A stretch of DNA of 64,000 nucleotides from Candidatus Latescibacterota bacterium (GTDB lineage Bacteria; Latescibacterota; UBA2968; UBA8231), in the NCBI GenBank assembly GCA_965248265.1, contig CBDFJF010000002.1, forward strand, positions 1,091,044 through 1,155,043, given 5' to 3'. Under the pieces are notes generated by a model that worked only from the letters and a program-made list of their open reading frames with translations, was not told where the DNA came from and searched no databases. The translations under genes and the position numbers were made by a program. Positions 41,410-63,928 of this stretch are shown piece after piece; positions within the stretch are counted from its first letter, which is position 1, and the number at the start of each line of letters is the position of its first letter.

Positions 41410-43116
41410 ATGGCATCCAACATGTACAAGGTCCTCCCGTTGGCATCGATCCTGGTGTTCCTGGTCTGTGCCGCCCAGGTGCCGCAGGAGGCAGCGGCTC
41501 AGACGAAGAAACTGGTTCAGTTCACGACCCACAGCACGCACGATTGGAACCCGGATTGGTCTCCTGACGGTGAGTGGATCGCTTTTGAATCGTTCCGCAC
41601 CGGCAATCGCGAAATCTATATCCAGCGTCTTGCCGGCGGTGAGGCAATCCAGATCACCGACCATCCCGAGACGGACGCCGTGGCAAGATGGTCTCCGGAC
41701 GGGAAGAAGCTGCTTTTCATCTCTACACGAAGCGGGTGCTTGAGACTCCACATCGTGGCGCCGTTTGAGGAAGGTATGCCGGTGTCGCTGCTGGGGACCG
41801 AGGCAGACTCCCTCGCATCCGACATCGTCAACTGGTCGCCCGATAGCAAAGAAGTCGTGTACTGCGCCGACACCGAGGGCAACCTGGGCATCTGGGCCAT
41901 GCCGGTCGCAGGCGGCCCTCCTCGCAGAATCATTGACCGGCCCCAACCCGATTATCACCCCGACTGGTCGCCCGATGGCCAGTGGATCGTCTTCGCCTCC
42001 GACACCACAGACGGCCCCGCCGATCTGTGGGTCGTTCCCGCAGCCGGTGGCGAGGCTCGTCAACTGACATTCGACCTGAACGGCAACACGGAGCCGGACT
42101 GGTCTCCGGACGGCAAGTGGATCGCCTTCTGGACGAACCGGGGTAATAACATAGCCATCGCGGTAATCCCGGCGGCGGGAGGAGAGCCGATCGCAGTGGG
42201 GGTGCCCGGTAATCGTCCGCGGTGGTCTCCCGACAGCAGACGTATCTGTTACCAGGGCTTTACTGAGTCGGGTGACCTGTTGGTGGTCTCGGCAGATGGC
42301 GGCGATCCTGTACCCCTGGCCGCCAACGCCGAGATGGGAGAGAGTGGCGGCGCCACCTGGTCTCCCGACGGTTCGAACGTTGCCTACGTCAGTGCCGATG
42401 GCGGCAGGAGAGAGATCTGGATCGTGAAAGCGGATGGCAGTGGGGCGGTGGCGCTGACCTCCGGCGCCTCGGCCGCCACGGGGGAGGCGACCGTGCGCTG
42501 GTCTCCGGATGGAGCGCACATCGCCTTCGTGTCGGATTCGGGAGGGCAAAAAAAGGTCTGGATCGTCCCGGCGGCCGGTGGCGAGCCCCGGTCGGTAAGC
42601 ACAACTCCCGGGGAAGATCAGCACATGGCGTGGTCACCGGACAGCAAGCAACTGGCCATCTCCAGCGGAACGTCGGCGGAGAGCGACCTGTGGGTCACGA
42701 CCGTTGCGGGAGGGACAGCACAACGGTTGATCGCGAGTCCAGGCGCTGATACAGACCCCGACTGGTCGCCCGACGGCGAGAGGATCGCCTTTGCCTCAAC
42801 CCGTTCTCATGGGGGCGAAGAAGGCCTGTGGAACCTATGGACCGTGGCGGCCTCGGGCGGGGAGCCGGTCTGGTTGGCTGAGGGCCGGTCTCCACACTGG
42901 TCGCCGGACGGCAGCCAGTTGCTGCACGTGTGGGACAACGACGTGTGGACGATACCGGTGGAAGGTGGCGAAGCGGAGACGCTGTTGGCCCTGAGTCAGG
43001 AATCCATGCGCCCCCGATGGGCCCCCGATGGGCAGTCGGTCCTCTACACGGGGGGGTTACACAGGCAGGGGGATGTGTGGATTGCCGATATCAGCGACGT
43101 CGTGGGCGGTGACTGA
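41410..43116 (+). CDS. Secreted PD40/TolB-like beta-propeller repeat protein
   Basis: Signal peptide plus more than 10 WSPDG repeats. Confidence 0.7.
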   Translation: MASNMYKVLPLASILVFLVCAAQVPQEAAAQTKKLVQFTTHSTHDWNPDWSPDGEWIAFESFRTGNREIYIQRLAGGEAIQITDHPETDAVARWSPDGKKLLFISTRSGCLRLHIVAPFEEGMPVSLLGTEADSLASDIVNWSPDSKEVVYCADTEGNLGIWAMPVAGGPPRRIIDRPQPDYHPDWSPDGQWIVFASDTTDGPADLWVVPAAGGEARQLTFDLNGNTEPDWSPDGKWIAFWTNRGNNIAIAVIPAAGGEPIAVGVPGNRPRWSPDSRRICYQGFTESGDLLVVSADGGDPVPLAANAEMGESGGATWSPDGSNVAYVSADGGRREIWIVKADGSGAVALTSGASAATGEATVRWSPDGAHIAFVSDSGGQKKVWIVPAAGGEPRSVSTTPGEDQHMAWSPDSKQLAISSGTSAESDLWVTTVAGGTAQRLIASPGADTDPDWSPDGERIAFASTRSHGGEEGLWNLWTVAASGGEPVWLAEGRSPHWSPDGSQLLHVWDNDVWTIPVEGGEAETLLALSQESMRPRWAPDGQSVLYTGGLHRQGDVWIADISDVVGGD

Positions 43117-43226
43117 AGGGCCTCCCCCGTTACCTGCCGGGGTGGACGGTGCGCTCGCGACGGGGGTCGGCCGCCACCTCGGAGTAGAACAGGCGCTGGG
43201 CCGGCGTCATCCGCTCCAGCGCTTCC

Positions 43227-43626
43227 GCGCTTAGTGAGGATAAGATAGGTTATCGTTACTAAGTCAGGCGGCGTTTTTTGCAATTTGCCGCATTTTGCCA
43301 GCATTGATGGCGGTTCTTTGTGGGGTGACGGTCGATCGACGAAAGCTGAGGCTTCGAACAGTGTCCTCGGAGCCGCTCTGAGCGAAACGGGCGTTCTCAG
43401 CGACAGATCAGGGCACAGCGGTGACGTTGCTGTGACCGCGAATCGATTTCAGGCGGCGAAATCCAGTTCAGGTTGGGGGTGGGGGCGTGCGGGTGCGATC
43501 GGCGGTGCCCGTGATGGCAGGCCGACGCCTTCCAGGTAGCGCGCAATGGAGCGGGGCTCGGTAAGGGCCGCAACTCCCTTCATCGGGCCGCCGCAGGCGG
43601 GGCATATGGTTACGTCGAATCGAAAA
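43227..43626 (-). mobile_element. IS91-family element end, copy 1. It consists of the 214-bp terminal (oriIS-like) module (43227-43440) plus a roughly 60-codon transposase 3' remnant.
   Basis: The module is identical to the other copies (gcgcttagtgaggataagataggttatcgttactaagtcagg...). The reverse frame ends ...FRFDVTICPACGGPMKGVAALTEPRSIARYLEGVGLPSRAPPIAPARPHPQPELDFAA*, typical of an IS91/ISCR TnpA C-terminus. Confidence 0.7.
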
Positions 43627-43627
43627 A

Positions 43628-44381
43628 ACAGATCGACATCGCAGACCAGAACCTCTTCCCGTCCCTCCCGATTCGCTCTCGCCAGGACCGAGCCGCTGGA
43701 CGAGTAGACTACACTGCCACCACTGCACGCATGGTCCCAGGACATACCCGTGCGGTTGCAGGCCAGCATGGGGGCGCCGATCTCCTGCGTGAGCGCACCG
43801 AGTTCGTCGAAGTCGGGCATGTTGCGACGGTTGTTGGGATAGAACACGACCTGGGGCCCCAATGCCCTGGCTCGCTCGATGCAGCGAGGCGCTTCCCCGT
43901 CGGAGCAGACGAAGCAGGTGGCCTTGATCCCATCGAACTCGAACAGCTCCGGACCCGTACCCGGATCGTATAGCGCCCATTCGTTGCGATATCCCGTATC
44001 CGTCGGGTCGGACCAGATCCAGGTCTTGCGGTATCCGTGCACCAGGCCCTGGGGGCCGACGAACACCTGTGAGATGTAGAACCGCTCGTCGTCGATTTCG
44101 GACAGGCCGAAGCTGATGAAGCAGTCTTGCTCTCGCGCCAGGGCGATAATGGACGAGGTCGAACGCCCCCCCGGCACAGGTTCGGCGTACTCCTGCAGAT
44201 GTTCCGTGTAGTCGCTTACCGTGCCTTCGTGAAAAATGATCCAGCGCGCGCCGCGATCCCGCGCCTGGCGCACGAAGGCGTGCATCTTGTCAAGATTGCC
44301 ATCGACATCTTCCGGCCGGGCGTCGAACTGTACCAGCGCTACGCGGATTCCAGGCACTCGAATGGCTCCAATGACTTCCAA
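43628..44381 (-). CDS. Carbon-nitrogen hydrolase family protein. Its last roughly 20 codons are replaced by an in-frame IS91 tnp remnant (the chimeric ORF extends to 43449).
   Basis: MEVIGAIRVPGIRVALVQFDARPEDVDGNL... with catalytic context FHEG (E), YRKTW (K), CSDGE (C). The ORF then reads through into transposase-derived sequence. Confidence 0.6.
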
Positions 44382-44422
44382 AACACCTGTTGATTGGCGC
44401 GGAAAACTTCAGCACGCGCGAC

Positions 44423-45151
44423 TCACCGCTTCTTGTGCCAGGCCTTCTCGAAGTGGTCGCGGGGGGCAAAGCCCAGGATTCGCTTGGCCTTCTCGTTGGA
44501 GAACTGACGGTGGGGCAGGTCGCCGAAGATGTTGAAGGCCTCGCAGCGGGAGGGCAACGTCGCCAGATCGACCTCGAGGGCGAGCCGGAAGGCCTCGCCG
44601 ACGTCCCGCCACGATGTGGTGAACGGGGTCAGATCCTCTCCCTCCCGCGCATCGTCGTCGTGGCGCAGGTGGAAGAAGAGCAGGGTCAGGACGTGGAGAT
44701 CGAAATTCTCGGTGAAGACCCTGCAGATCTCCTGCCCAAGCCCCTTGGTGATCGGGTACAGGCTGGTCGATGTCTGTGCCGGTACGTCGGGATGGATGTC
44801 GTAGTCGAAGTCGGTGTAGGGGAAGCCCTGGATGGTGAAATGGGGACCGCTGTTGACGACCCGCCCGATGCCGTGTTCCAACGCCGCGCGCATCGCGTTG
44901 TAGCAGCCGCGCGTGCTCACGTCGAAGGCGAGTTTTCTATCCTCCCGCAGCACCGACAGGTTGACGATCGCCTCCCTACCCTCGGCCGCCGCCACTACTT
45001 GATCGAGGTTCGCCACGTCCAGCTGCCGCGACTCGTGCTGCGTATCGATCGGCACGACGTCGGTCACCAGCAGCTCGTGGTGCTCACCGAGCGCCTTGAC
45101 CACCGACGGCCCCATGCGGCCACCGCCGCCGAGAATCAGGACCCGCATCAA
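44423..45151 (-). CDS. NAD(P)-binding epimerase/dehydratase-family (extended SDR) protein
   Basis: Rossmann fold, ILGGGGRMG. A tandem paralog lies upstream. Confidence 0.6.
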   Translation of the reverse strand: MMRVLILGGGGRMGPSVVKALGEHHELLVTDVVPIDTQHESRQLDVANLDQVVAAAEGREAIVNLSVLREDRKLAFDVSTRGCYNAMRAALEHGIGRVVNSGPHFTIQGFPYTDFDYDIHPDVPAQTSTSLYPITKGLGQEICRVFTENFDLHVLTLLFFHLRHDDDAREGEDLTPFTTSWRDVGEAFRLALEVDLATLPSRCEAFNIFGDLPHRQFSNEKAKRILGFAPRDHFEKAWHKKR

Positions 45152-45867
45152 CTGCCTCCTCCCGTGGCCGGCTGGAACACCGGCTCATAGCTCAGGTTGC
45201 TCCTGGCGCGGCCGATCAGGAATCGGGACCGGGCAAACTCCGACTGTATGTGATAGATCGCCCAGGTGTCGGCCGGCGATTCGAGGGAGCCGACAAACGC
45301 CTGCACGGCATCCTCGATCTCGAGCCAGCTGGTATCCAGCGGCTGGCCAGCAGCCTCCGCGGCGGTCACCAGGGTCCCGAGCCTGAGCAAAGTCACATTG
45401 ATCCGTCGTTCCCGGGCAAACTCGCGGACCGTGAACTCGCCGAGGTGTCTCGCCAGCACGTCCGCGTCAGTCGTGGGCGCCGGCCGCCACGATTCGGTCA
45501 CCGTCCAGTCTTCGTCGTGCCCCTCGAACAGGCGCAGGGTGCTGGTGTAGATCGCGTGCCCGATGCCGGCGTCAGAGGCGGCGTTGAAGAGGTTGTAGGT
45601 GCACCGCGTCTGGAAGTCGATCATCCGGCTCTCCGGCTGCAGCGACTCCGCAAGAACGGACGACGGCGGTTCAGCTACGTGGATGACCGCATCCATGCCG
45701 GCGACCAGGGTATCGGTCTCTTCCTCGTGACCGAGCTTGCACCTGACGAAATCGAAGTCGGTCTCAACCGGCACCAGGTCGGTGAGGCGCAGCTGGTGGT
45801 GCTCGCTCAATGCCGCGGCCAGCCGTTGCGCCAGTTGCGAAGCGGCCGAGGTGATCAGGATCTTCAT
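45148..45867 (-). CDS. NAD(P)-binding epimerase/dehydratase-family protein (tandem paralog)
   Basis: Similar to 44423-45151. Confidence 0.55.
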   Translation of the reverse strand: MKILITSAASQLAQRLAAALSEHHQLRLTDLVPVETDFDFVRCKLGHEEETDTLVAGMDAVIHVAEPPSSVLAESLQPESRMIDFQTRCTYNLFNAASDAGIGHAIYTSTLRLFEGHDEDWTVTESWRPAPTTDADVLARHLGEFTVREFARERRINVTLLRLGTLVTAAEAAGQPLDTSWLEIEDAVQAFVGSLESPADTWAIYHIQSEFARSRFLIGRARSNLSYEPVFQPATGGGS

Positions 45868-45901
45868 TCGCTGTTCCCCGTTATGGCGGGTACGTTGAGT
45901 T

Positions 45902-46477
45902 TCAGAACGACGCTTCTTTGGCCTTCACCAGCGCGGTAATCACCTCGTTGGTGGGCGCCGCCGTGCCGACTTCGCGGGCCACTACCGGGACCATGCCGTT
46001 GATGGCATCGATCTCGGTGCGCCGGCCCGCCAGGTAGTCGAGAAGCATGGAGGGCCGTGCATCGGGCATCTTCTCGGCAAAGGCCGTGATGTAGGCGGTG
46101 GCATCGTCGAACGAGAACCGCACGCCTTTTGCCACGCCGGCCTCGTAGGCCTCGAGACCGCAGCTCAGCGCCACGCCCCAGGCGTTCTCGTCGGCCATCA
46201 ATTCGCCAATGGTCTTCTCCAGCACCGTCGTAGGTCCGCTCAGGGCGACGTTGCAGATGAACTTCTCCCAGACCAGTTGCTGGATGTCGTCGTAGGTTCC
46301 GATGTTGAATCCAGCCTCTTTCCAGACGTCGGCCACCTTCTCGAGACGCTCGCTGATTTCACCGTTCATTTCGCCGAAGCGGATCAGCTGCATTCCGTTG
46401 TGATGGGCGTGACCGGGGCCCTTGATGGAGGCACCAAAGCCGCCGGCAACGCCGATCATAATTCTCTCGGCCGGCAG
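45902..46477 (-). pseudogene. 5'-truncated 2-dehydropantoate 2-reductase (ApbA/PanE) gene. Only the C-terminal roughly 190 codons are present, and it is cut exactly at the start of repeat copy 2.
   Basis: C-terminal ApbA_C-like sequence (...LLDYLAGRRTEIDAINGMVPVVAREVGTAAPTNEVITALVKAKE). The N-terminal Rossmann GxGxxG part is absent. The frame stays open up to the repeat boundary. Confidence 0.55.
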
Positions 46478-47757
46478 GGCGCTTAGTGAGGATAAGATAG
46501 GTTATCGTTACTAAGTCAGGCGGCGTTTTTTGCAATTTGCCGCATTTTGCCAGCATTGATGGCGGTTCTTTGTGGGGACGGTCGATCGACGAAAGCTGAG
46601 GCTTCGAACAGTGTCCTCGGAGCCGCTCTGAGCGAAACGGGCGTTTTCAGCGACAGATCAGGGCACAGCGGTGACGTTGCTGTGACCGCGCGGCTTTTGA
46701 GGTTTTTCGCGGGCGTTGAGGGCGATATGTGTGTTGCCCATCATTCGGTGAACTACGGGCCAGCGGATGGGGTGCCCTGATCAGCCTCTGCGGGCGCAGC
46801 GGCAGCTGTCAGCTAGAGATGGGGACGCAGCGGTGTCTGGCGTCGGTCTCAGGCGGCAAAGTCGAGCTCGTCTTGGGGATGAGGCCGTTCCGGGGCGATG
46901 GGCGGCGAGCGCGATGGCAAGCCGACACCCGCCAGATAGCATTGGATAGAACGTGGATCGGTGAGAGCAGCCACTATTTTCATGTGGCCACCGCAGGCGG
47001 GGCACACGGTAACGTCCACGCGAAAAACCCGTGCTAGCAAGGCGGCCCAGGCCAGTCGGTGCCGGCGTTGGGCGGGGGTGGGCTCCTCCGTATGCGCACA
47101 GGTCTCCGCTTCGGGGGCCTCTTCTTTGGGGCCCGGTACGATCTGTGCCCGATCGGCCGCATTGGGCGCCAACACGCCATGGTAGCGCACCAAGTTGAGG
47201 CGCCGTGGCGGCACCAGGGCGGCCAGTTTCTCTATCAATTCTTGCGGCGAGAGCTCAATTCGATAGGTGCCGTCCGACCAGACCGTTTTCAGGTCGAAAG
47301 CCACTCTTTCGGTATCCAGGATCTGCAGGCGTCCCGCTGCAAGCGGCGGTCTATTGACGTAGCGGCACAGTCTCTCCAGGCGGGTACGATCGGCGGCCGG
47401 CACGCGGGTGGCCGCATGCAGGGAGAAGCCGCGCGCGGCAAAGCACAACGGGCCGGTGCGGATGCCCTGCTGGGGATCGAGCAGGCGCCGGCGCACGGGC
47501 TGGCCAGCACGGTCGCCGGTGGCCACCCTGGACTGGATCGAGGCCGCAGTGATTGTTGCCAGCAGAGGCTCCTGCTCCATGAGCGGATCGGTACTGCCCT
47601 CTTCCAGCAGGCCGCGCCGTAGCAGCAGACGGACAACGCGTTGCGCCGTGGTCTCGACGATCTGTTGCATTGACGTTCGACGGGCGAGACACTCAAGACG
47701 CGTTTGCCAGGGCCGATCACATGGTTGAGAATAGCCGTGGGGCAAAGGAGAATTCAA
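46478..47757 (-). mobile_element. IS91-family element end, copy 2. It consists of the 214-bp module (46478-46690), a 160-bp unrelated spacer, and a divergent 302-codon 5'-truncated transposase remnant.
   Basis: The module is at least 98% identical to the other copies. The transposase remnant carries the Y2-region motif LERLCRYVNRPPLAAGRL and a C-terminal Zn-ribbon (CPACGG). It lacks the N-terminal HUH part. Confidence 0.7.
46849..47757 (-). pseudogene. IS91-family (HUH/Y2) transposase, 5'-truncated (C-terminal roughly 300 aa)
   Basis: ...RLCRYVNRPPLAAGRLQ...VDVTVCPACGGHMKIVAALTDPRSIQCYLAGVGLPSRSPPIAPERPHPQDELDFAA. It is about 85% identical over the C-terminal roughly 75 aa to the remnants in copies 1, 4 and 5. 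Confidence 0.65.
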
Positions 47758-48971
47758 TGAAAATCAAATCCGTCGAAGTCGTCAGCATCGAACGCCCAGG
47801 CGCCTCAAACGCATCCACAGGGTCTGGAACGACATTGGCAGCCTCAACCGCGTTCGTCCCTGAAACAGAAGGCCGTCGAAAAGCCTGGCCCACGCAAATC
47901 GAAGTCGCCAACCCCATGTCAAAATTCCCACGCTTCAAAACACGCCGCCAACTCTACAGCGCCAAGCAATGGCCGAGGTTCGGTGTCAAAGTCACCGCTG
48001 AAAACGGCACCTGGGGGTTGGGCACATCGGCCGGACGGCCAGCAGCCATGGTCGTCGAAGACGCATTTGCCCATATCCTTGAAGGTGAAGAATGCCTTGC
48101 GATTGAAAAGCTCTGGGACATGATGTTTCGTGTCTCCAAACCTTTCGGCACAGCTGGTATCGCCTCTCTCGCCATCAGCGCTGTAGATCTCGCCTTGTGG
48201 GATCTCGCTGGCAAACTGCAGAACAGACCTGTCTACGAACTCCTCGGCGGCCCCGTGCGTGACCGCCTGTTCACTTACGCCACTGGCGACGATGTCGATT
48301 GGTACAGGGAATTGGGATTTCGCGGTTTCAAACTCCCCTGCCAATACGGCCCCGTCGATGGTTTGCAGGGATTGCAGGCAAACGAAAAGCGCATCGCAGA
48401 AGTCCGCCAGCTCATCGGCGACGACAGCGAGCTCATGCTCGACTGTTACATGGCCTTCGATGTCGAATACGCCACCCGCCTTGCCGAACGTCTGCGTGCC
48501 TATGGCCTGCGCTGGATGGAGGAATGCCTGATCCCCGAAGACGTTCTCGGCCACATCGACCTCAGAAAGCGACTGCCCTGGATGGCCTTGGCCAGTGGTG
48601 AGCATTTCTACACACCTTATCCCTATCAAATCATCATCGAAAACCGTGCCCTCGATGTCCTTCAACCCGACATTCAATGGGTCGGCGGCATGACCGCCTG
48701 TGTCAAAATCGCCAACATGGCCGCCTCTGCCGGTTTGGAAGTCTGCCTTCACGGAGGTGGTCGCGATGCCTACGGCCAACACTTCAGCTGGGCCATGCCC
48801 AACACCCCGTGGGCCGAATACTACATCGGCTCAGATCCCGGCATTCCCCTCGAAGCAGTCGCCCAACCCGGCTCTGTCATTCCACGCGACAGCTATCTCG
48901 AATTCACGCAAACAGGCCCCGGTTTCGACCTCGGTGTCGAAGAAGAATGGCTTGTACCGTTTCAGCCATAG
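47758..48971 (+). CDS. Enolase-superfamily enzyme (mandelate racemase/muconate lactonizing-enzyme type, sugar-acid dehydratase-like)
   Basis: About 405 aa. The ATG at 47758 has an RBS aaggag. MR/MLE-like barrel motifs are present (KLWDMMFR...GIASLAISAVDLALWDLAGK). Confidence 0.65.
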
Positions 48972-48993
48972 TGATCATTTGCAAGGAGCTCAG

Positions 48994-49484
48994 ATGATAG
49001 TCGATTACCTCAGTAACGCACACAACTACTACGGCCTCGGGCCGCGGATAGAGGCTGCTCTGCGATATCTTCAGGATGACGATTTCGACGATTTGGAGGA
49101 GGGCAGCTTTGTGTTCGATCTGGAGCAGGAAGGGCTGCGGGCAGTCCGCAGCAACTTCGAGTCGCGGCCGATCGAGGACCCAAGTACGAGTTCCATCGGC
49201 GCTCCATCGACGTGCAGCATTTCATCGAGGGCGAGACGCTGTGCGGCTGGGCGCACATCAGTCAGCTGAAGCTGGAGGAATACCATGCCGAAGAGGACTA
49301 CCTGTTCGGCACGGGCGAAGGTGACCTGATCCGCGCCCGCCCCGGGACATTCTTCATCTTCGCCCCTCAGGACGGCCACATGGCCAACCTGCAGCCGCCG
49401 CAAGCTCCAGGACCGATCAAGATGAAGAAGTGCACGGTGAAGGTGGACCTCGACGACTCGAGTGCCTACTCCCGCGGTGCATGA
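48994..49484 (+). pseudogene. YhcH/YjgK/YiaL-family (DUF386) protein, with a frameshift near 49200
   Basis: MIVDYLSNAHNYYGLGPRIEAALRYLQDDDFDDLEEGSFVFDLEQEGL continues in another frame as HFIEGETLCGWAHISQLKLEEY...GTFFIFAPQDGH. Confidence 0.5.
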
Positions 49485-49502
49485 TTCGGGCGACCGGCCT
49501 CT

Positions 49503-50617
49503 CTACCCACTCACTTCAGCGGCCCAGGGCAGATCGTAGGAGGGGATATTGACGAAACGGTCCATGCCCAGATGCAGCCTGATCCTCGAACACGGCTTCA
49601 TCGCGACGCGGAAAAAAGAAGCCCCCACGGCGACTTCGTTCTCCTCGACCTCGCCGGCCATCTCCTCGTCGTAGCGTTCCTCTTCTTGCCAGTTGGTGCC
49701 TGAAAAAACGTCGTGACTGCGTCCGCTGGCCAGAGCCTGGTAACGGATGGTCGTGAATCGATGTTCGCCGAAGGCGCCGGCCTGCACCACCAGCTCCCGC
49801 CGGGTCGCCGCGCTCAGGTTGACCAGTGTCACGACTGCACCATCGGCGTCGATCGATTCGACCAGTGCCGCCACGTCCGGCGGCAGTCCCGGTCGCTTGC
49901 GGTCCCAGTCGTAGTAACGCAACCGCACCAGCAGCAGGCCGCCGTTGAAGCTGCCCGCCCATCGTCAGCTGCACCAGCCCCTCGGTGGTGATCGGATTGC
50001 GCACCTGCAGGTAGTGGTCGCCGTAGGTCGCCGGATCCTGCTCGTCGTGGGCCATGTAGGCCAGACGCTGGTAGACCTGACCGTGGTTGTAGTGCAGGAT
50101 CTGCTCCGGGTAGTCGGGGAACTCGCCCCGCAGATATCCCAGCCAGGTCGCCTCGTGACCTCCGCGGTCCTTGCCGCCTTTGACCTGTATCGTCTCCCAG
50201 TCTCGCGAGTTCGGGTCGCGCTGGCGCTCGATCCGTTCCATGTCGGCCGCCTCCATCGAGATAGACCAGACGTGGGCCATGAACCGGGCCTGTAACGGAC
50301 TGTAGCCGTCCCAGCCCTTGTCGTGGTGGTGATGGGGAACGAACAGGGCCCCGTCCCGGTCTTCCCCCGTTGGCCATCATCAGGTCGATCTGCGAGCGGG
50401 CTAAATCCATGTACTTCTGATCCCGGGAAACCAGCATGGCATTCTCGGCGCCGCTGAGCACCGCGTCGCCCATGGTGTGCCAGCCGTGCGGCCAGGTCCA
50501 ACCGTAGTACCCGCCGTACCACCGTCCGCCCAGGTACTCCCCGACCTGGCCTGACAGGCCCACGTTGTCGGGAAGAATGCCGTCGTTCGCTTCGACCCGG
50601 TCCATCCAGGCGCCCAC
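49503..50617 (-). pseudogene. Truncated and frameshifted paralog of the 616-aa gene at 9889-11739. It is cut at the start of repeat copy 3.
   Basis: Three frames carry homologous segments (MGAWMDRVEANDGILPDNVG...GGYYGWTWPHGW; RDWETIQV...; LRYYDWDRKRPGLPPDVAALVESID...). They align to the C-terminal roughly 370 aa of the 616-aa protein. Confidence 0.65.
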
Positions 50618-50618
50618 G

Positions 50619-50832
50619 GCGCTTAGTGAGGATAAGATAGGTTATCGTTACTAAGTCAGGCGGCGTTTTTTGCAATTTGCCGCATTTTGCCAGCATTGAT
50701 GGCGGTTCTTTGTGGGGTGACGGTCGATCGACGAAAGCTGAGGCTTCGAACAGTGTCCTCGGAGCCGCTCTGAGCGAAACGGGCGTTTTCAGCGACAGAT
50801 CAGGGCACAGCGGTGACGTTGCTGTGACCGCG
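50619..50832 (-). mobile_element. IS91-family terminal module, copy 3. Only the 214-bp module is present, with no transposase remnant.
   Basis: The module sequence is identical to the others. Unrelated sequence follows immediately after ...gctgtgaccgcg. Confidence 0.7.
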
Positions 50833-50975
50833 CCGTCGAAGGGGACTTTGTGATGATCGGGGTCTGCGCGTCGAGTAGATCTGGCGATTCAAAGGCCTTA
50901 AGGTCCTCTGCCGGCAGGGAGTCGTCGGAGTCTTCGGGGACCTCGAAGCGCGTGCTGTCGCAAGTCAGGCCGGTC

Positions 50976-52028
50976 CTACTCGTTGCCCCAGGGGTAGGAC
51001 GGGATGCGCAGTGATCGATCGGTGGCGGGCAAGTTCACCCGCGCGCCTGCATTGTTGCTGGAGAGGTGGATAGCGAAGCCGATCTCGGTAGCCCGGCGGG
51101 CGTGATCCACATCGCAGGCTGTGGTACCGCCAGTGCGTACTGCCTGTGCCAGATCACTCACTGCGGCTGGACCGGCAGGCCATCCCTCGGGCAGGATTGG
51201 CAGCTCCAGCGGGCGTGGTTGCAACTCTGCCCGCCCATCGCCGCTGGTCTCGGTCCACAGGTGCGCCTGGCGGGCATCGTTGAGGATCAGCAGCCGCCCG
51301 TGTTCGCCCAGTACCTCGAACCCGGCACCGGGGCCGCCCTCCGGTATCGCCACGGCTACCGCACCGTTGTCCAGACCGATCTGCGCCCTGCCAGTGGGAT
51401 CCATGCGACTTCGCGCGTCGGGCGGCTCGTCGGAAACGTCTTGCACGAAGCCGCTCACCCACACCGGTTCGGGATCGCCGGCCAGCGCCAGCATGGTGTC
51501 GTACCAATGGCAGCCGTGATTAATCAGGTTGGGCAGACCGTAACCGGTAACGCCGGTAACGGCGCCGATCGCACCATCGGCGATGACCTGGCGCAGGAAG
51601 CGGTAGGAGGAGTCCCAGCGTCGATCCAGTCCGAAGGCCAGCGGGACATTGGCGCGCCGGCATGCCTCCACAATGCGATCGGCCTCCTCCAGACTGGTCG
51701 CCAGCGGCTTATCGGAGAGAATGCCCCGCACTCCGGCCGCCAACGCCTGCTCGCATTGCTCCGCGTGCATCGTCTGGCGGACGGCGATACAGACGATGTC
51801 CGGCTGGGCCTCCTGGAGCATTTGTGGGTAGTCATCGTAGCTGGGGATGTCGCCCCAACATTCGACGAAGGCCGCCCTGGTTTCCGCTCCCAGATCGAAC
51901 ACCGCGACCATCTCTGTCCCGGTAACCGCAGCAAAAGCGCTGGCCCAGTTGTGGCCGGCCTGTGGGCGCGTCAACATGCGGTGACAGCCGGAAATCGCTA
52001 CGCGCAATGGCTTTTCAGTCTGTGTCAT
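50976..52028 (-). CDS. Gfo/Idh/MocA-family NAD(P)-dependent oxidoreductase
   Basis: LRVAISGCHRM ... ILSDKPLATSLEEADRIVEACRRANVPLAFGLDRRWDSSYRF. Confidence 0.6.
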   Translation of the reverse strand: MTQTEKPLRVAISGCHRMLTRPQAGHNWASAFAAVTGTEMVAVFDLGAETRAAFVECWGDIPSYDDYPQMLQEAQPDIVCIAVRQTMHAEQCEQALAAGVRGILSDKPLATSLEEADRIVEACRRANVPLAFGLDRRWDSSYRFLRQVIADGAIGAVTGVTGYGLPNLINHGCHWYDTMLALAGDPEPVWVSGFVQDVSDEPPDARSRMDPTGRAQIGLDNGAVAVAIPEGGPGAGFEVLGEHGRLLILNDARQAHLWTETSGDGRAELQPRPLELPILPEGWPAGPAAVSDLAQAVRTGGTTACDVDHARRATEIGFAIHLSSNNAGARVNLPATDRSLRIPSYPWGNE

Positions 52029-52031
52029 CTG

Positions 52032-52988
52032 CTATGGCCACAGGAACAACACACCCATCGCCTGGTCGGGGTGCTCGTAGAGAAAATCAAAGCCCTCCTT
52101 GGCCTGTTGCCCGTCGAATCGGTGGGTGATCAGCGGCTCGACCGCGACCTCCCTTGCGGACAGTGCCGTCATCGCCACCTGCCCGGCCTCGTTGCGGTCC
52201 GTGTCCGGCGGGTAGCCACCGATCAGGCGTTTGCCCATCATCTTCGAGGCATCCAGCGGCAGGGGGGCGTTGTGGTAGATGCCTATCAGTTGCAACAGGC
52301 CCCCGGGAGCGAGCATTTCCTGGGCCTGCGCAAACGACTCGATCCCGGCGCGACCGCCGACGCAGTCTATCACGATGGTGGCCAGGTCGCCGCCGGTGAG
52401 GCGCGAGACCGCTTCTACCGGATCTTCCTCGGCGGCGTTTACCACCTCCGGGGCGCCGACTTCGGCGGCCAATCGACAGCGCAACTCCAGGGCATCGACG
52501 GCGATCAGCTGCGCGGGCTGATAACGCCGTGCGCACTGCATCACCAGGTTGCCGACGATACCCTGGCCGAGCACGACAACGCGGTCCTGCGGGGTGATCC
52601 CGGCAACCCCGGTCCAGCCGACGCTGCTCGTAGTCAGGGGATGGAAAGTGCCCTCTTCGAGGGAGAGATCGGGATGCAGGGGGACGACCCGCTCGGTGAG
52701 GGAGTACTCGGCGTGGGGAGCGCTGGCGACGACGCGATCTCCCGGGGTCACCCGAGTCACACCTTCGCCCACGAGCTCGACAATTCCCGTCGTAGAGTAG
52801 CCCATTGCGCTGGGATCGACCGCCTCTTCCCGCTCGTAGCGGCGCCATAACTCCGAGCCGCGACTGATCAGGCTGACCTGCGTGCGACTCAGCACCTGGC
52901 CCGGACCCGGCTCGGGGATGGGCACCTGCTCCAATACGACGTTGCCAACGCCCTCGTGCTTGGCCGTCCGCCACATCATCTCAGCCAT
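52032..52988 (-). CDS. Zinc-binding alcohol dehydrogenase (MDR) family oxidoreductase
   Basis: GDRVV ... VVVLGQGIVGNLVMQCA Rossmann motif. It is 318 aa. Confidence 0.6.
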   Translation of the reverse strand: MAEMMWRTAKHEGVGNVVLEQVPIPEPGPGQVLSRTQVSLISRGSELWRRYEREEAVDPSAMGYSTTGIVELVGEGVTRVTPGDRVVASAPHAEYSLTERVVPLHPDLSLEEGTFHPLTTSSVGWTGVAGITPQDRVVVLGQGIVGNLVMQCARRYQPAQLIAVDALELRCRLAAEVGAPEVVNAAEEDPVEAVSRLTGGDLATIVIDCVGGRAGIESFAQAQEMLAPGGLLQLIGIYHNAPLPLDASKMMGKRLIGGYPPDTDRNEAGQVAMTALSAREVAVEPLITHRFDGQQAKEGFDFLYEHPDQAMGVLFLWP

Positions 52989-53014
52989 GGTGGTCCTCCT
53001 CTTTCTTTTTTGGC

Positions 53015-53555
53015 TCAGTCCAGCAGGTCCAGCGCCTGCATCGCGGCGCGGATGTAGCCGAGGGCGAATGCACGGCCCCGGTGACCGTAGGCCGAGTCGC
53101 CGATCACCCTCGGCGTGTGGTCCGGGGTGATCACGCCCTGGTAGCCGGCGTCACGGTAGGCCTTGAGCGCCGCGATCATGTTCACGTCGCCCTCGTCGAT
53201 GAAAACTTCGTCGAACTTGGGTACGCCCCCTTTTACGTTGCGGAAATGGACGTAGAAGATCTTGTCCTGGGAGGCGAATCGCTCGATCGCGTCGAGGGTG
53301 TCTGCCGGTCCCATTTCCGCCACAGTGCCCTGGCAGAACTCGAGCCCGTTGTTGGGACTGGGCACCAGGTCGATCAGTCGTTGCATGGCGTCGTGGCTGG
53401 TCAACAGGCGACCGGTCCCGAACAGGCTCTCCACCGGAGGATCATCCTGATGGGCCGCAAGCTGCACGCCGGCGCGCTCGGCCACGGGCACGATGCGCTT
53501 GAGCATGTAGGCCAGCCGCTCCCACATCTGATCGACCGACACCGGCGCGTCTTCA
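53015..53555 (-). pseudogene. 5'-truncated mannonate dehydratase (uxuA) paralog. Only the C-terminal roughly 178 codons are present, and it is cut at the start of repeat copy 4.
   Basis: It aligns to the C-terminal half of 36648-37632 (WERLAYMLKRIVPVAERAGVQLAAHQDDPP ... IFYVHFRNVKGGVPKFDEVFIDEGDVNM ... GYQGVITPDHTPR). Confidence 0.65.
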
Positions 53556-54090
53556 GCGCTTAGTGAGGATAAGATAGGTTATCGTTGCTAAGTCAGGCGG
53601 CGTTTTTTGCAATTTGCCGCATTTTGCCAGCATTGATGGCGGTTCTTTGTGGGGTGACGGTCGATCGACGAAAGCTGAGGCTTCGAACAGTGTCCTCGGA
53701 GCCGCTCTAAGCGAAACGGGCGTTTTCAGCGACAGATCAGGGCACAGCGGTGACGTTGCTGTGACCGCGAATCGATTTCAGGCGGCGAAATCCAGTTCAG
53801 GTTGGGGGTGGGGGCGTGCGGGTGCGATCGGCGGTGCCCGTGATGGCAGGCCGACGCCTTCTAGGTAGCGCGCAATGGAGCGGGGCTCGGTAAGGGCCGC
53901 AACTCCCTTCATCGGGCCGCCGCAGGCGGGGCATATGGTTACGTCGAATCGAAAAACGCGTGCCAATAAGGTCGACCAAGAAAGGCGATGACGGCGTTGG
54001 GCGGGCGTCGGCTCAGAACCTCGACCGGGGAGCGCTTGGGGGGCCTGCCTCTCTTCCTTTGGGGGGACGGGGTATCGGTGGTTGCCCACA
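53556..54090 (-). mobile_element. IS91-family element end, copy 4. It consists of the 214-bp module plus a roughly 100-codon transposase 3' remnant.
   Basis: The module is identical to the others. The reverse frame reads ...EPTPAQRRHRLSWSTLLARVFRFDVTICPACGGPMKGVAALTEPRSIARYLEGVGLPSRAPPIAPARPHPQPELDFAA*. Confidence 0.7.
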
Positions 54091-54468
54091 GCAATGGGCG
54101 TTGACGGGGATACAACAGTGGATTATGTATGGGACGAAGATAGTCAGGCAGCTAGAGCAGTGGGAAGCGGGAATCAGTCAAACGTGCGATGCTCTGCGAG
54201 CATCTCCGTGATATTCCGATGGGCGCCGGAGGACGAGGTCGCAGTCAGCCTGGACGGAAACGCACTCGGCTCTCCGGCCATCATCGATGTTGCCGAGAAC
54301 GACGACGCCCCACCGAGGGTGTCGGAGAACAAGTGGCTGGTCTGGGACCTTAAGCCCGATCAGATCGCCAAGGGAGCGCACACGATCAAAGTGGTTCTGG
54401 TCAATCGAGATTCCAGAATCAAGGTGCCCCTGACCATCGACCATGTCGATCTACACGTGAGATACTGA
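54082..54468 (+). CDS. Hypothetical small protein (128 aa, possibly a beta-sandwich domain). The start is uncertain.
   Basis: This is an ORF only. It overlaps the end of the tnp remnant. Confidence 0.25.
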   Translation: MPTAMGVDGDTTVDYVWDEDSQAARAVGSGNQSNVRCSASISVIFRWAPEDEVAVSLDGNALGSPAIIDVAENDDAPPRVSENKWLVWDLKPDQIAKGAHTIKVVLVNRDSRIKVPLTIDHVDLHVRY

Positions 54469-54515
54469 TAGAACCGTACCCCCTCCATACCGCTCGATCT
54501 CCCAGAGGAGCCGCG

Positions 54516-56342: not shown

Positions 56343-56609
56343 TTCCCGGATAGCCTGGATCTGTTGGGTCGTCAGGCCGATCTCGCGCACGTAGGCTTCG
56401 ACTCCGCCGTACGTGTCTGAGCGTAATCCGCATGGTTTCAGCCGGAGCCAGATAATCCATGCTCTGCGCCCGCCGCAGGTCGTCCGTGGACCATCCCGGA
56501 GGAGGCCCGTCGGTCGAATAGCGCTTGAACGGGGTTGGTGCCGTCAAAATACCGATGTTACCATCCCTCCTGGTCCGCTTCATGCACAAGAACAAGGATC
56601 CGAGGTGAT

Positions 56610-58049: not shown

Positions 58050-58053
58050 GCTT

Positions 58054-58122
58054 CGTGGTGTTGGCCAAAGGCGATGGCGTGGCCGTCCGGATCGCGCACC
58101 GCAAACTCCTTCATATCGTAAT
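58054..58122 (-). pseudogene. 22-codon C-terminal remnant of a VOC/glyoxalase-family gene
   Basis: MKEFAVRDPDGHAIAFGQHHEA*. The preceding remainder of the gene is absent. Confidence 0.3.
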
Positions 58123-58168
58123 CATCCTAAATACAAGGGTGGCGATGCCAGTCGCTGCGGGCTCGACC

Positions 58169-59213: not shown

Positions 59214-59532
59214 GCGCTTAGTGAGGATAAGATAGGTTATCGTTACTAAGTCAGGCGGCGTTTTTTGCAATTTGCCGCATTTTGCCAGCATTGATGGCGG
59301 TTCTTTGTGGGGTGACGGTCGATCGACGAAAGCTGAGGCTACGAACAGTGTCCTCGGAGCCGCTCTGAGCGAAACGGGCGTTTTCAGCGACAGATCAGGG
59401 CACAGCGGTGACGTTGCTGTGACCGCGAATCGATTTCAGGCGGCGAAATCCAGTTCAGGTTGGGGGTGGGGGCGTGCGGGTGCGATCGGCGGTGCCCGTG
59501 ATGGCAGGCCGACGCCTTCCAGGTAGCGCGCA
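59214..59532 (-). mobile_element. IS91-family element end, copy 5. It consists of the 214-bp module plus a roughly 29-codon transposase 3' remnant.
   Basis: Module present. The reverse frame ends ...ARYLEGVGLPSRAPPIAPARPHPQPELDFAA*. Confidence 0.7.
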
Positions 59533-59746
59533 AGCGACTCCAGTGACGGGTCGCAGGCGTGGTAGACATCGCACTTCGAGCGTATGGCGAGAAGTTCCCC
59601 TCGCAAGGTCTGACCTCGAAGCGAACCGGCCCGCCACCTCGGCGAGATCATCGCCGCCCGGACTCTGGCTGGCGCTCGACCACTTCACCGGCCACGTCGG
59701 CAGCTTTCTCACCCAGGCGTAGCCTGCCGCGCGGGCGTCGACAGCG

Positions 59747-61504: not shown

Positions 61505-61519
61505 GCGGTTCCTTCGATA

Positions 61520-62671: not shown

Positions 62672-62861
62672 ATTCGCCCCCCGTCGAAGTCCGGCTCCGC
62701 CCGAAACACTTGACTGCTCACGATAATATAGCTTCTATGGACAAACCCGAACGGATAGGAATGTGGAGTCATCGGTAGCTGCGCCTCGCCGGGCGGCCTG
62801 ACAGTGGAATCCATTCCTGCAATCGGCAGTTGAGCCCCATCCGGCTATTTTTCGATTACCA

Positions 62862-62896
62862 ACTTTCCACTACGTTATAATTATATTATAATTAAG
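62862..62896 (+). promoter_or_regulatory. AT-rich putative promoter/operator of brnTA. It has a direct repeat of TATAATTA.
   Basis: acgttataattatattataattaaggc lies immediately upstream of the BrnT start at 62899. Confidence 0.4.
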
Positions 62897-62898
62897 GC

Positions 62899-63186
62899 AT
62901 GGCAGATCTACAGTTTGAATGGGACGAAGCCAAAAACAAAGCGAACCAAAGGAAACACGGCGTTTCATTCGAGGAAGCCCAGACGGTTTTTTTCGACGAG
63001 CATGCTGTACAGTTCTTTGATGACGATGTGCTTGGAGAGGATCGCTTTCTGATGCTGGGATGCAGCGCCAGGCTCCGCGTTTTGATTGTCGTCCACTGCT
63101 TTCGAGATGAGGAGTCAGTAATCCGCATTATTTCTGCCCGCAAGCCCACGAGGACGGAGCGGTCCGAGTACCCGGAGGAGTCATGA
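62899..63186 (+). CDS. brnT: BrnT-family toxin (DUF497)
   Basis: MADLQFEWDEAKNKANQRKHGVSFEEAQTVFFDE...IISARKPTRTER is the characteristic BrnT sequence. Confidence 0.75.
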   Translation: MADLQFEWDEAKNKANQRKHGVSFEEAQTVFFDEHAVQFFDDDVLGEDRFLMLGCSARLRVLIVVHCFRDEESVIRIISARKPTRTERSEYPEES

Positions 63187-63407
63187 AAAAGGAATACGAT
63201 CTTTCCAGCATGAAGCGCCGCAAGAACCCCTTCGCCAGCCGACTCAAGAAACAGGTGACAATCCGCCTGGGAGTGGACGTAATCGAGTACTTCAAGGCGC
63301 TTGCTGATGAAACCGGCATGTCGTACCAGAACCTGATCAATCTCTATTTGCGCGACTGTGTATCCAGTAATCGCAAGCCGGTCCTGGAATGGGAAGAGGT
63401 CGGATAG
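63183..63407 (+). CDS. brnA: BrnA-family antitoxin (CopG/RHH-like)
   Basis: KRRKNPFASRLKKQVTIRLGVDVIEYFKALADETGMSYQNLINLYLRDC. It overlaps brnT by 4 bp. Confidence 0.7.
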   Translation: MKKEYDLSSMKRRKNPFASRLKKQVTIRLGVDVIEYFKALADETGMSYQNLINLYLRDCVSSNRKPVLEWEEVG

Positions 63408-63432
63408 ATCCGTGTCCCGGGGAGAGTCATCC

Positions 63433-63857
63433 ATGAAAACCGCTGTCGTTGCAGGAGTCGGACCGGGGCTCGGTGCCGCTCTGGTTCGCAAGTTCGTTGC
63501 TGAAGGTTGCCGGGTGGGCATGCTCGCCCGCTCGCCCGATTACCTGGAAGAGCTACAAGCTGAACTGGGCGAAGAGAACGCCCTGGCCGTTGCCGCTGAC
63601 ATCACGACGGATACCGCCGTAGTGTCCGCCTTCGCTCGAGTCAGGGATCGCTTCGGACCGGTCGACATTCTGGTCAACCACGCCAGCCTGTCGAACTGGA
63701 AAGGCCTCATGGACATAACACCGAAGGAGTTCGAGCGCGCCTGGCGCGTGACCGTTCTCGGAGCGCTGCATTGCAGCCGGGTGGCTGCAACCGACATGCT
63801 GGCCGACAATCGTGGTGGGACCATTCTCTTCACGGGAGCGACTTCATCCATTCGCGG
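63433..63857 (+). pseudogene. 3'-truncated short-chain dehydrogenase/reductase (SDR) gene. About 141 codons are present. It is cut where repeat copy 6 begins.
   Basis: MKTAVVAGVGPGLGAALVRKF (the TGxxxGxG Rossmann motif) ... FTGATSSIRG, after which the frame continues into repeat sequence. SDRs are normally about 250 aa. Confidence 0.6.
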
Positions 63858-63928
63858 GCGCTTAGTGAGGATAAGATAGGTTATCGTTACTAAGTCAGGC
63901 GGCGTTTTTTGCAATTTGCCGCATTTTG
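63858..63928 (-). mobile_element. IS91-family terminal module, copy 6. Only the first 71 bp of the module are present.
   Basis: gcgcttagtgaggataagataggttatcgttactaagtcaggcggcgttttttgcaatttgccgcattttg is followed by unrelated sequence to the window end. Confidence 0.6.

Follow-up and report, generated by a model that had tools for sequence, protein, structure and literature searches.

Same-orientation oriIS stumps of an ISCR/IS91-type insertion sequence heading unrelated gene blocks in a Candidatus Latescibacterota genome

Introduction

Transposition in the IS91 family begins at the oriIS end, of which the last 82 bp suffice; circles with an ori-ter junction are formed, and termination fails in 1–14% of events, which leads to one-ended transposition (PMC13181058). 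In ISCR1, a 232-bp oriIS region lies downstream of the transposase gene and ends at an exact boundary with variable DNA beyond it (PMC6218425); the same 2018 paper on ISCR elements stated that no experimental evidence of transposition existed. For ISCR2, circular intermediates composed of cargo and ISCR2 as well as copy-number-polymorphic arrays have been reported (PMC7190383). The assembly of resistance-gene clusters is attributed to ISCR elements, whose capture of DNA has mostly been inferred from static clinical sequences.

We analyzed a stretch of 64,000 nucleotides from a Candidatus Latescibacterota bacterium (the window), where an initial annotation had pointed out a repeated 214-bp module. 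It had regarded the module as far more conserved than the adjacent transposase sequence, and had suggested that it is an oriIS, a MITE-like derivative or a homologous-recombination hotspot that homogenizes the copies. Comparison with related loci (designated by L numbers) identified the module as the 3' non-coding end, including oriIS, of an uncharacterized rolling-circle insertion sequence of the ISCR/IS91 family. The six window copies are transposase-less, non-autonomous stumps, each heading a block of unrelated genes.

Results

The 24-mer GCGGCGTTTTTTGCAATTTGCCGC was found six times on the + strand of the window against an expectation of 0, and the six module copies lie within 21 kb in the same orientation (Table 1). 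The initial annotation described all six as at least 98% identical. This holds for the five full modules, which share a sharp outer boundary (GCGCTTAGTGAGG...) and differ pairwise by 0–3 substitutions, copy 2 having in addition a 2-bp deletion, whereas copy 6 diverges past its outer 71 nt. The reported 8-bp gap corresponds to a spacer, AATCGATT, between the module and the transposase stop codon in copies 1, 4, and 5. Copy 3 was correctly recognized as the module alone, with a sharp inner end at ...CTGTGACCGCG, and the inverted repeat CTTAGTGA...TTACTAAG is also present as described. The 'GC hairpin followed by T's', on the other hand, has a stem of 5 bp (GCGGC/GCCGC), and its T-run forms part of the 14-nt loop, with no T-tract after it; it was not called by the terminator scan and is not kept even in a 95%-identical relative. 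Intact transposase is absent from the window, which contains only C-terminal remnants, all devoid of the HUH region; the source contig has just a 471-aa cluster member listed.

Table 1. Coordinates of the oriIS-anchored copies and adjoining features in the window
Feature	Position	Strand	Remarks
PD40-repeat gene tail	43065..43201	-	begins 26 nt beyond copy 1 outer end
Module copy 1, 214-nt oriIS-containing 3' region	43227..43440	-	outer end at 43227
Copy 1, entire oriIS-anchored fragment, 401 nt	43227..43627	-	inner junction is the natural stop codon of a nitrilase-family gene
Copy 1, transposase C-terminal remnant, 179 nt	43449..43627	-	
Ketopantoate reductase (panE) gene, 5'-truncated	45902..46478	-	ApbA_C domain only; cut at outer end of copy 2
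Module copy 2, solo module, 212 nt (2-bp deletion)	46479..46690	-	inner breakpoint same as copy 3
3' non-coding region of second ISCR lineage (class B), without terminal ~40 nt	46691..46848	-	
5'-truncated transposase of second ISCR lineage	46849..47673	-	Y2_Tnp match; aligns to residues 213–487 of 487-aa master protein
Module copy 3, solo module without transposase sequence	50619..50832	-	spacer ~140 nt downstream of GFO/Idh/MocA oxidoreductase gene
uxuA, 5'-truncated	53015..53555	-	profile positions 177–351 of 352; cut at outer end of copy 4
Copy 4, oriIS-anchored fragment, 508 nt	53556..54063	-	module 53556–53769, 8-nt spacer, 286-nt transposase remnant 53778–54063
Copy 5, oriIS-anchored fragment, 320 nt	59214..59533	-	module 59214–59427, 8-nt spacer, 98-nt transposase remnant
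Short-chain dehydrogenase (SDR) gene, 3'-truncated	63358..63857	+	profile positions 1–139 of 195; cut at outer end of copy 6
Copy 6, outer 71 nt of module only	63858..63928	-	both subterminal palindromes inside this stretch

The identity of the module became clear from four related assemblies (L014–L017), in which an intact gene for a 487-aa transposase is followed by 8 nt and then by a module 94–95% identical to that of the window. Their module ends at ...CACTAAGCGT, and right after this end the assemblies differ from each other (four strains, four sequences). The intact transposase contains the domains Zn_Tnp_IS91 and Y2_Tnp (72.6 and 99.9 bits, respectively, for the master copy, L014:6001-7464), as do its full-length relatives of 480–494 aa, in which an H-V-H motif (NPHVHVLMIDG) is visible. 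The window remnant at 46849–47757 matched Y2_Tnp at 70.9 bits and also ISCR_clade_Ia. Of the three identities initially suggested, oriIS was thus the right one, the module being the region downstream of an IS91/ISCR-family transposase.

The closest annotated relative of the master transposase is that of ISCR2 (ISVsa3), with 41% amino-acid identity over 95% of the protein. The scores were below the cut-offs both for ISCR_clade_Ia of NCBIfam (384 bits, cut-off 925) and for the transpos_IS91 equivalog (109 bits, cut-off 125); the element is related to ISCR clade Ia and to the IS91 equivalog, and is a member of neither curated group. We regard it as an additional, environmental representative of gene-capturing elements of a known kind, and not as a new kind of element.

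A terminal core of approximately 30 nt, TAACGATAACCTATYTTAT...CACTAAGC, is kept across lineages in which the modules are only ~71% identical overall. All copies have the same boundary, after ...CACTAAGCRY, and directly beyond it their flanks differ. There was no conserved tetranucleotide beside the outer end in more than 20 outer flanks (the window and L001, L002, L004, and L010–L017). Upstream of the gene, palindromes were found ~100 nt from the start codon in L002, L003, and L005; a definition of terIS from L006–L009 was dropped, as the upstream context is common to these loci. Scans with exact 22-mers gave no match in the genome and metagenome contig collections, and the degenerate core pattern had no match in the genome or viral contig collections and matched four contigs in the metagenome collection.

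The outer end is intact in all window copies, which retain 71, 213, 215, 320, 401, and 508 nt, and in the related loci, where 37, 66, 155, 176, 181, 244, 245, 331, 370, 428, 514, and 952 nt are retained. The inner cut point is variable, lying between 37 nt and ~1 kb from the exact outer end. This nested series of oriIS-anchored stumps argues for variable termination. Every partial transposase match reaches the last residue (487) and none is N-terminal only, in loci collected with C-terminal or module queries, a procedure that favours oriIS-containing fragments among the primary hits but not among the secondary flanking copies. The inner breakpoints have no conserved tetranucleotide, unlike those of IS91. 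A rule that retained pieces begin with a pyrimidine seemed to apply to the first 12 fragments and was broken by L017 copy 2, L010, and L014 copy 2.

Truncated genes adjoin at least four outer ends (panE, uxuA, the SDR gene, and the PD40 tail). The PD40 tail is 83% identical to the sequence ~280–415 nt upstream of the intact master transposase in L014–L017. The inner junctions are located at or after intact gene ends: one at the stop codon of the nitrilase gene, others past the ends of the GFO and S15 peptidase genes. Excision of copy 1 to rebuild a longer nitrilase was ruled out: the homologues end exactly at ...DLDL*, so that the junction of copy 1 is the stop codon. A match between the flank of copy 6 and that of L015, produced by BLAST extension, was judged to be due to chance.

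The module of copy 2 had appeared to be separated from its transposase remnant by 160 bp of unrelated sequence. This spacer is really the 3' non-coding region of the lineage to which the copy-2 transposase belongs, since remnant and spacer form a single alignment to L003 with 88% nucleotide identity; the inner part of the module has 70% identity with one 53-nt stretch of the spacer (46691–46848). Copy 2 is a solo module lying against a fragment of a second ISCR lineage that has its own truncated 3' end. The missing outer ~40 nt make this fragment an exception to the rule that the outer end is always intact, and the model needs an extra step: a 215-nt stump may have been inserted ~40 nt inside the end of a second-lineage fragment and later mobilized from its own oriIS. 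The apparent location of an IS110 element of L003 exactly at the copy-2 breakpoint was judged to be an artefact of the point where BLAST stopped; alignment by eye to the intact 3' region of L002 suggests that the ISCR sequence of L003 runs on beyond this breakpoint.

The remnant of copy 2, previously given as ~85% identical in protein to the others, shows 75–80% protein and 70–73% nucleotide identity to them. In copies 1, 4, and 5, the modules are 98.6–99.1% and the transposase remnants 99–100% identical, and relative to the distant L002 lineage the module is ~71% and the transposase 79–88% identical. Between distant lineages, the module thus diverges faster than the transposase. The initial annotation had stated that its view would fail if module and transposase diverged at the same rate and copy 2 were a separate family member with its own end. 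Copy 2 is such a member, its end being truncated and adjoining a solo module, and the two parts diverge equally in copies 1, 4, and 5. For these reasons, together with the faster divergence of the module from L002, the claim that the module is far more conserved than the transposase fails both within and between lineages.

Pairs of related strains differ by single units. L017 equals L016 plus one 5,153-bp unit, consisting of cargo and a 370-nt stump and placed exactly at the resident outer end, with flanks that are 100% identical. No duplicated bases were present at either junction of this unit, the single clean case, and target-site duplication is absent there. L002 and L004 differ by an analogous unit. 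Homologous recombination between direct repeats, with deletion of the unit, would explain both differences equally well; they would then represent the loss and not the gain of a unit. L004 is a recombinant of L002, with a hybrid transposase and the module type of the second copy of L002; the two copies of L002 have transposase sequences that are 95% identical and modules that are only 73% identical.

Discussion

The anatomy of the stumps and the biology of IS91, on which we base the mechanism and direction of transfer, make it fairly probable that transfer begins at oriIS, with variable stopping points, and that the one-ended-transposition units produced in this way accrete. The transposase, a putative HUH Y2 enzyme supplied in trans, would nick exactly at the outer end, between the flank and GCGCTTAG on the + strand of the window. 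Strand transfer would run inward through the module and then the transposase gene to a loosely specified stopping point, an early stop leaving an oriIS-anchored stump of 37–950 nt. As such a stump has no terIS, a later round from its oriIS would read into neighbouring DNA and end arbitrarily, the product being a one-ended-transposition unit of oriIS stump and cargo. Units would join at the outer junction of a resident oriIS, either by homologous recombination of a circular intermediate with the resident module or by the action of the transposase. Repetition could have built the same-orientation array of six units (43227–46478, 46479–50618, 50619–53555, 53556–59213, 59214–63857, and 63858 onward), in which the truncated ketopantoate reductase and uxuA genes would represent the termination points of units 1 and 3, respectively.

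The array might instead have arisen by decay in situ, six full-length ISCR copies having been inserted independently and then eroded by ordinary deletions, including deletions outward from the oriIS end. Adjacent deletions could account for the genes cut at the outer ends, numerous other IS elements able to drive deletions are present in the region and its relatives, and deletions by homologous recombination between copies do occur. We consider this history unlikely, as random erosion would be expected to spare N-terminal or internal parts of the transposase with about the same frequency as the C-terminal part, yet all partial matches are oriIS-anchored. It also leaves unexplained the uniform orientation (1 in 32 by chance), the tight clustering, and the presence of a unit precisely at a resident outer end in strains that are otherwise 100% identical. 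The 214/215-nt module could also be a discrete MITE-like, non-autonomous element that combines oriIS with a cryptic terminator (the hairpin CACAGC-N9-GCTGTG, 6 nt from the break) and is moved as a unit independently of the gene. In copies 2 and 3, the identical inner breakpoint, found in no other fragment, is accompanied by one shared non-parental base and by unrelated flanks on both sides, suggesting either that the piece was copied in one block on at least one occasion or that this is a hotspot of termination. A subterminal palindrome immediately precedes the breakpoint, an arrangement also described for terIS (PMC13181058). Another breakpoint, after ...CCAGTTC, recurs in two different lineages and ends in GTTC, the IS801/IS1294 cleavage tetranucleotide; ...GTGACCGCG and ...CCAGTTC are the candidate cryptic terminators. 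The features of a MITE are, however, absent, as the module is collinear with only one parent end and no duplication is found at the flanks of copies 2 and 3, and there are no inverted-repeat pairs of at least 40 nt in 40000–64000. This length occurs in only two of ~18 independent fragments, ~190 kb of related loci contain no 215-nt copy, and copies 1, 4, and 5 cross the boundary straight into transposase sequence. For the hairpin that follows the stop codon, RNAalifold analysis of the different lineages supported neither a consensus nor covariation. Such an explanation would account for no more than copies 2 and 3 and would leave the array aside, and we regard it as improbable.

The third initial suggestion, that gene conversion or homologous recombination at a hotspot keeps the module more uniform than the transposase, was correct in that recombination between copies is seen in related strains, both in the module swap of the L004 hybrid and in the single unit by which L016 and L017 differ; the identities in L002 (95% versus 73%) show that module and gene lineages can be reshuffled. 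None of this is specific to the module, since the remnants in copies 1, 4, and 5 are as uniform as the modules, and the discordance in copy 2 comes from the juxtaposition of two elements, not from conversion; homogenization is therefore a very unlikely explanation. That the repeat is not derived from a transposon, but is an integron attC-like site, a non-coding RNA gene or a repeated promoter/terminator cassette, is scarcely credible. The copies do lie regularly spaced, in one orientation, between gene blocks, and the module has palindromes. It is, however, collinear with the 3' end of an intact IS91/ISCR transposase gene, yielded no Rfam match at E<=1 and no tRNA, has a count of terminator-like sites within the shuffled expectation, and as a whole folds with ordinary energy relative to shuffles (z = -1.1 and -0.15). 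No sigma-70-like promoter was found in 43100–43700 on either strand, sigma-70 being possibly not the promoter type of the host. Integron attC sites are imperfect palindromes of 57–141 bp, whereas the repeat is 214 nt long and continuous with the transposase gene in the master copy, and a spacing of 2.9–5.7 kb with truncated genes is unlike integron cassettes.

Starting from transfer at oriIS with variable termination, we tentatively propose a wider possibility, which we hold to be less than probable. ISCR-type transposases may stop loosely, one oriIS giving rise to anything from 37-nt stumps to units of several kb, and new units may preferentially join exactly at the outer junction of a resident oriIS, which would serve as a 'docking site' that grows as unrelated gene blocks are stacked on it in the same orientation. 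If so, the locus would be a rolling-circle counterpart of the integron platform, operating on ordinary metabolic genes of uncultured marine bacteria, and the strain pairs L016/L017 and L002/L004 would each record, in nature, the gain or loss of a single unit.

The ISCR architecture, with its exact oriIS boundary, variable DNA beyond it, and same-orientation arrays, is found here outside the clinic and with metabolic cargo. Two testable additions are the clean nested series of oriIS-anchored stumps and the pairs of almost identical strains of which one has exactly one unit more than the other at a resident oriIS. As regards annotation, the results explain chimeric ORFs, such as a nitrilase-transposase fusion protein in public databases, and the truncation of genes beside these repeats.

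The element resembles IS91, IS801, and IS1294 in its two-domain transposase, putatively of the HUH Y2 type, and may also have, as they do, ori and ter ends that differ in function; one-ended transposition of those elements takes adjacent DNA along, circles with an ori-ter junction also being known (PMC13181058). The oriIS with subterminal palindromes lies downstream of the gene in both cases. Those elements need a tetranucleotide of the GTTC/CTTG type beside oriIS, whereas none is conserved in the outer flanks analyzed here. Helitrons of eukaryotes are likewise HUH-driven, with asymmetric ends, gene capture through read-through of the terminator, and abundant truncated non-autonomous copies; they differ in their Rep/helicase fusion protein, hosts, and end signals.

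As in the ISCR1 of complex class 1 integrons, variable DNA follows the oriIS region, which here measures 222 bp (8 + 214). ISCR1 is tied to the integron 3'-CS, and outward promoters have been mapped in its oriIS region, whereas the sigma-70 scan detected none here, although the promoter type of the host may differ. ISCR2, at 41% protein identity, differs in terminal sequence (...TTCTTCCTATACGT versus ...CCTATCTTATCCTCACTAAGCGC), and in place of resistance genes the present array, from uncultured marine-type bacteria, has ordinary sugar-acid, sulfatase, and peptidase genes as cargo, every window copy being a stump. The likeness to ISCR2 lies in its 235-nt non-coding region between the stop codon and a sharp oriIS boundary, in its same-orientation arrays of copies with different cargo between them, and in an E. 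coli plasmid that carries a 98-nt oriIS-anchored duplicate directly on the outer end of a full ISCR2.

The repeated module as an ISCR/IS91 3' end

A module-derived 24-mer matched the window six times against an expectation of 0, always on the + strand and between 43 and 64 kb, and the copy limits were obtained from an alignment of these six sites with exact boundary mapping. With five complete copies, the repeat described in the initial annotation is genuine, although its claim of six near-identical modules holds for the five 214-nt copies and fails for the sixth, which has the outer part only. Any pair of complete modules differed by 0–3 substitutions. All six copies open at an identical base (+ strand: GCGCTTAGTGAGG...), and their left flanks are unrelated. 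In copies 1, 4, and 5, the module is followed by an 8-nt spacer and then by the reverse-complemented transposase C-terminus (179, 286, and 98 nt, respectively). Copies 2 and 3 end at the identical base (...CTGTGACCGCG); to the right of copy 2 lie 158 nt and a different transposase remnant of ~825 nt.

Module copies, proposed units, and neighboring features in the window
Feature	Position	Description	At outer end	Proposed unit
Copy 1	43227-43440	complete, 214 nt	tail of PD40-repeat gene	43227-46478
Copy 2	46479-46690	complete, 2-bp deletion	panE lacking N-terminal domain	46479-50618
Copy 3	50619-50832	complete, 214 nt		50619-53555
Copy 4	53556-53769	complete, 214 nt	uxuA lacking residues 1-176	53556-59213
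Copy 5	59214-59427	complete, 214 nt		59214-63857
Copy 6	63858-63928	outer 71 nt only	short-chain dehydrogenase lacking C-terminus	63858 onward
Copy 6 inner flank	63929-64000	AT-rich, in contrast to the window elsewhere (61% GC); window ends here		
Nitrilase-family gene with its chimeric ORF	43449-44381	minus strand		
PD40-repeat tail	43065-43201	138 nt		
43-nt direct repeats	41549-43052	from repeat finder		
PD40 beta-propeller gene	41410-43116	coding repeats ..PDWSPDG..IAF..		

The long copy-2 remnant matched Pfam Y2_Tnp and, in NCBIfam, ISCR_clade_Ia much more strongly than IS91. A database search yielded more than 2,000 relatives, the complete ones being 480–494 aa with Zn_Tnp_IS91 and Y2_Tnp domains. 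Four assemblies (L014–L017) encode an identical 487-aa protein (P0248). An 8-nt stretch separates its stop codon from a module 94–95% identical to that of the window, ending ...CACTAAGCGT; this intact gene plus module is termed the master copy. The layout is the same in loci L002 and L004, of a more distant lineage (modules ~71% identical). The module is thus the 3' non-coding end of a member of the ISCR/IS91 family. In such elements, that side bears oriIS, the start of rolling-circle transposition (PMC13181058, PMC6218425), and the early suggestion of an oriIS was correct, the module being collinear with the 3' end of such a transposase gene. The comparable 3' region is 232 bp in ISCR1 (PMC6218425) and 235 nt in ISCR2.

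The best annotated relative of the 487-aa protein is ISCR2/ISVsa3 (41% identity), and the protein reaches the curated cut-off of neither the ISCR clade Ia model nor the IS91 model. It is a distinct lineage, to date known only from metagenome assemblies, and the element is a new environmental representative of the ISCR/IS91 kind. Sequence scans gave four matches among JGI metagenomes and none among viral contigs or the representative genomes of GTDB; a 471-aa transposase cluster member is listed for the window's source contig (4.14 Mb).

In P0006 (L002:10001-11446), a transposase called as 'full-length' at 481 aa, the C-terminus (...TLPGRRRPATTGTADRPGTPPSPV) is unlike that of all relatives, which looks like a frameshift close to the 3' end. 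The ISCR copies of related genomes (L003:1999-3273; loci L001 and L014) lie amid many other IS elements (IS110, IS3/rve, IS256/Transposase_mut, ISL3, DDE_Tnp_1). In L003, an IS110-family gene is found no more than a few hundred nt from the 3' region of the ISCR; the L003 contig terminates in ...CGACTATCCTCAC, resembling the ISCR terminal core.

The two hairpins noticed at the outset match in position a pair of imperfect subterminal palindromes that IS91 and IS801 are described as having in their oriIS (PMC13181058). Folded as the + strand, the first forms an interrupted stem of 13 bp that lies 3 nt from the module end; the L002 lineage has kept neither. The GC hairpin had been taken to fit an origin-like or terminator-like element; a terminator scan called no terminator-like site there, and its stem is already degraded in a 95%-identical relative.

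Conservation of module and transposase

Using exact coordinates, we compared module and transposase identities, which were, respectively, 98.6–99.1% and 99–100% among copies 1, 4, and 5, 93.5–94.9% and 88.8–90.8% between the window and the L014 master copy, ~71% and 79–88% between the window and the second copy of L002, and 71% and 86.5% between L014 and that L002 copy. The module is not systematically more conserved than the transposase, and at larger distances it evolves faster, except for a terminal ~30-nt core (TAACGATAACCTATYTTAT...CACTAAGC). The excess conservation proposed in the initial annotation was therefore not borne out, and independent mobility of the module survives only for the 215-nt form common to copies 2 and 3.

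The single discordant case is copy 2 (module 98% identical to the others, transposase 70–73%), because its transposase comes from another lineage. One alignment spans both remnant and 158-nt spacer with 88% identity to L003; the spacer is the 3' region of that transposase's own lineage. A 53-nt stretch of it is 70% identical to the module's inner part, and its last ~40 nt are missing. Copy 2 is thus a solo module adjoining a fragment of a second ISCR. In essence, this is the case that the initial annotation had given as one that would refute its proposal, with copy 2 a separate family member that has its own end.

Nested fragments and breakpoints

Every fragment retains the exact outer end, and the inner cut point varies. 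The retained lengths are 71, 213, 215, 320, 401, and 508 nt in the window and 37, 66, 155, 176, 181, 244, 245, 331, 370, 428, 514, and 952 nt in related loci. When the 487-aa protein was compared by tblastn with the window and all loci, all partial matches reached residue 487 and none was N-terminal only, an asymmetry that would not be expected from random decay. In the IS91 model, strand transfer begins at oriIS, and a second cleavage, at terIS, sets the strand free; this cleavage fails in 1–14% of events, resulting in one-ended transposition (PMC13181058). The simplest reading of the nested series is a second cleavage that, in the present family, would be poorly specified and often early. 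We infer that the oriIS-anchored stumps arose by such early termination, not by deletion.

Two breakpoints recur: one after ...GTGACCGCG in copies 2 and 3, 6 nt past the hairpin CACAGC-N9-GCTGTG (which had no covariation support), and one after ...CCAGTTC in L014 copy 2 and L011, of different lineages, terminating in GTTC, the IS801/IS1294 cleavage tetranucleotide. These suggest cryptic terminators just within the module boundary; the remaining breakpoints shared no common motif.

Junctions of the array

The six copies have the same orientation within 21 kb, and truncated genes abut the outer ends in at least four cases. Copies 2 and 4 do not look like simple insertions, since inspection by eye of minus-strand translations of the far side of copy 4 showed nothing resembling uxuA, and the next recognized gene downstream of the copy-2 ISCR remnant is one of the enolase superfamily, on the + strand, and not a panE N-terminal domain. 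The inner junctions are located at, or past, the ends of intact genes: ~140 nt past the GFO gene in copy 3, ~210 nt past the S15 peptidase gene in copy 5, and at the nitrilase stop codon in copy 1, as homologues terminate exactly after ...DLDL. The nitrilase has lost this stop codon to copy 1, and its frame continues into what is left of the transposase; NCBI/ENA-derived collections contain this chimeric ORF of 302 aa as protein P0121.

The junctions fit units that would each consist of a stump and the adjoining genes up to an arbitrary stop, beginning at one outer end and finishing against that of the next stump. The cargo blocks were presumably moved by one-ended transposition, and we infer that resident oriIS junctions served as their points of attachment, whether recombination with a circle or the transposase did the joining.

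The PD40-repeat tail starts 26 nt past the copy 1 outer end, encodes ...AQRLFYSEVAADPRRERTVHPGR followed by a stop, and is 83% identical to L014:5586-5719, a stretch preceding the intact L014–L017 transposase by ~280–415 nt. Perhaps a master-type unit was formerly joined to copy 1 and left this tail as a relic. The 43-nt repeats were ruled out as a non-coding feature, being coding repeats of the PD40 protein.

Related strains and the ISCR2 parallel

L017 equals L016 plus one 5,153-bp block (L017:7689-12841) with both flanks 100% identical. The block is inserted precisely where the outer end of the master copy meets its flank, and contains sulfotransferase, acetyltransferase, kinase-like, and HAD genes with a 370-nt oriIS-anchored stump. 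In the four master-copy assemblies, more than 6 kb upstream is 99.5–100% identical, and the sequence past the outer end is different in each. The unit polymorphisms, with an analogous one between L002 and L004, could also be recombinational deletions instead of gains. The difference between L002 (10001-16899) and L004 (10001-11676) is a recombination between direct ISCR repeats that swapped the 3' end: L004 lacks a ~5.2-kb block that in L002 separates a full copy from a 952-nt stump, and its hybrid, frameshifted transposase (P0052, 408 aa) has the module type of that stump. The nested series and single-unit strain differences bear on how ISCR/IS91 elements capture DNA and are of moderate interest.

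For ISCR2, circular intermediates of cargo plus ISCR2 and polymorphic arrays have been reported (PMC7190383). The E. coli plasmid pHN13R-tetX4 (NZ_MZ054178.1) carries, as does the window, same-orientation ISCR copies with different cargo between them. Directly on the outer end of its full ISCR2/ISVsa3 copy lies a 98-nt oriIS-anchored duplicate (2142-2239), which repeats the final ~100 nt of this very end. Thus, the arrangement of a stump on a resident outer end, as in the window's relatives, is found here in a clinical element.
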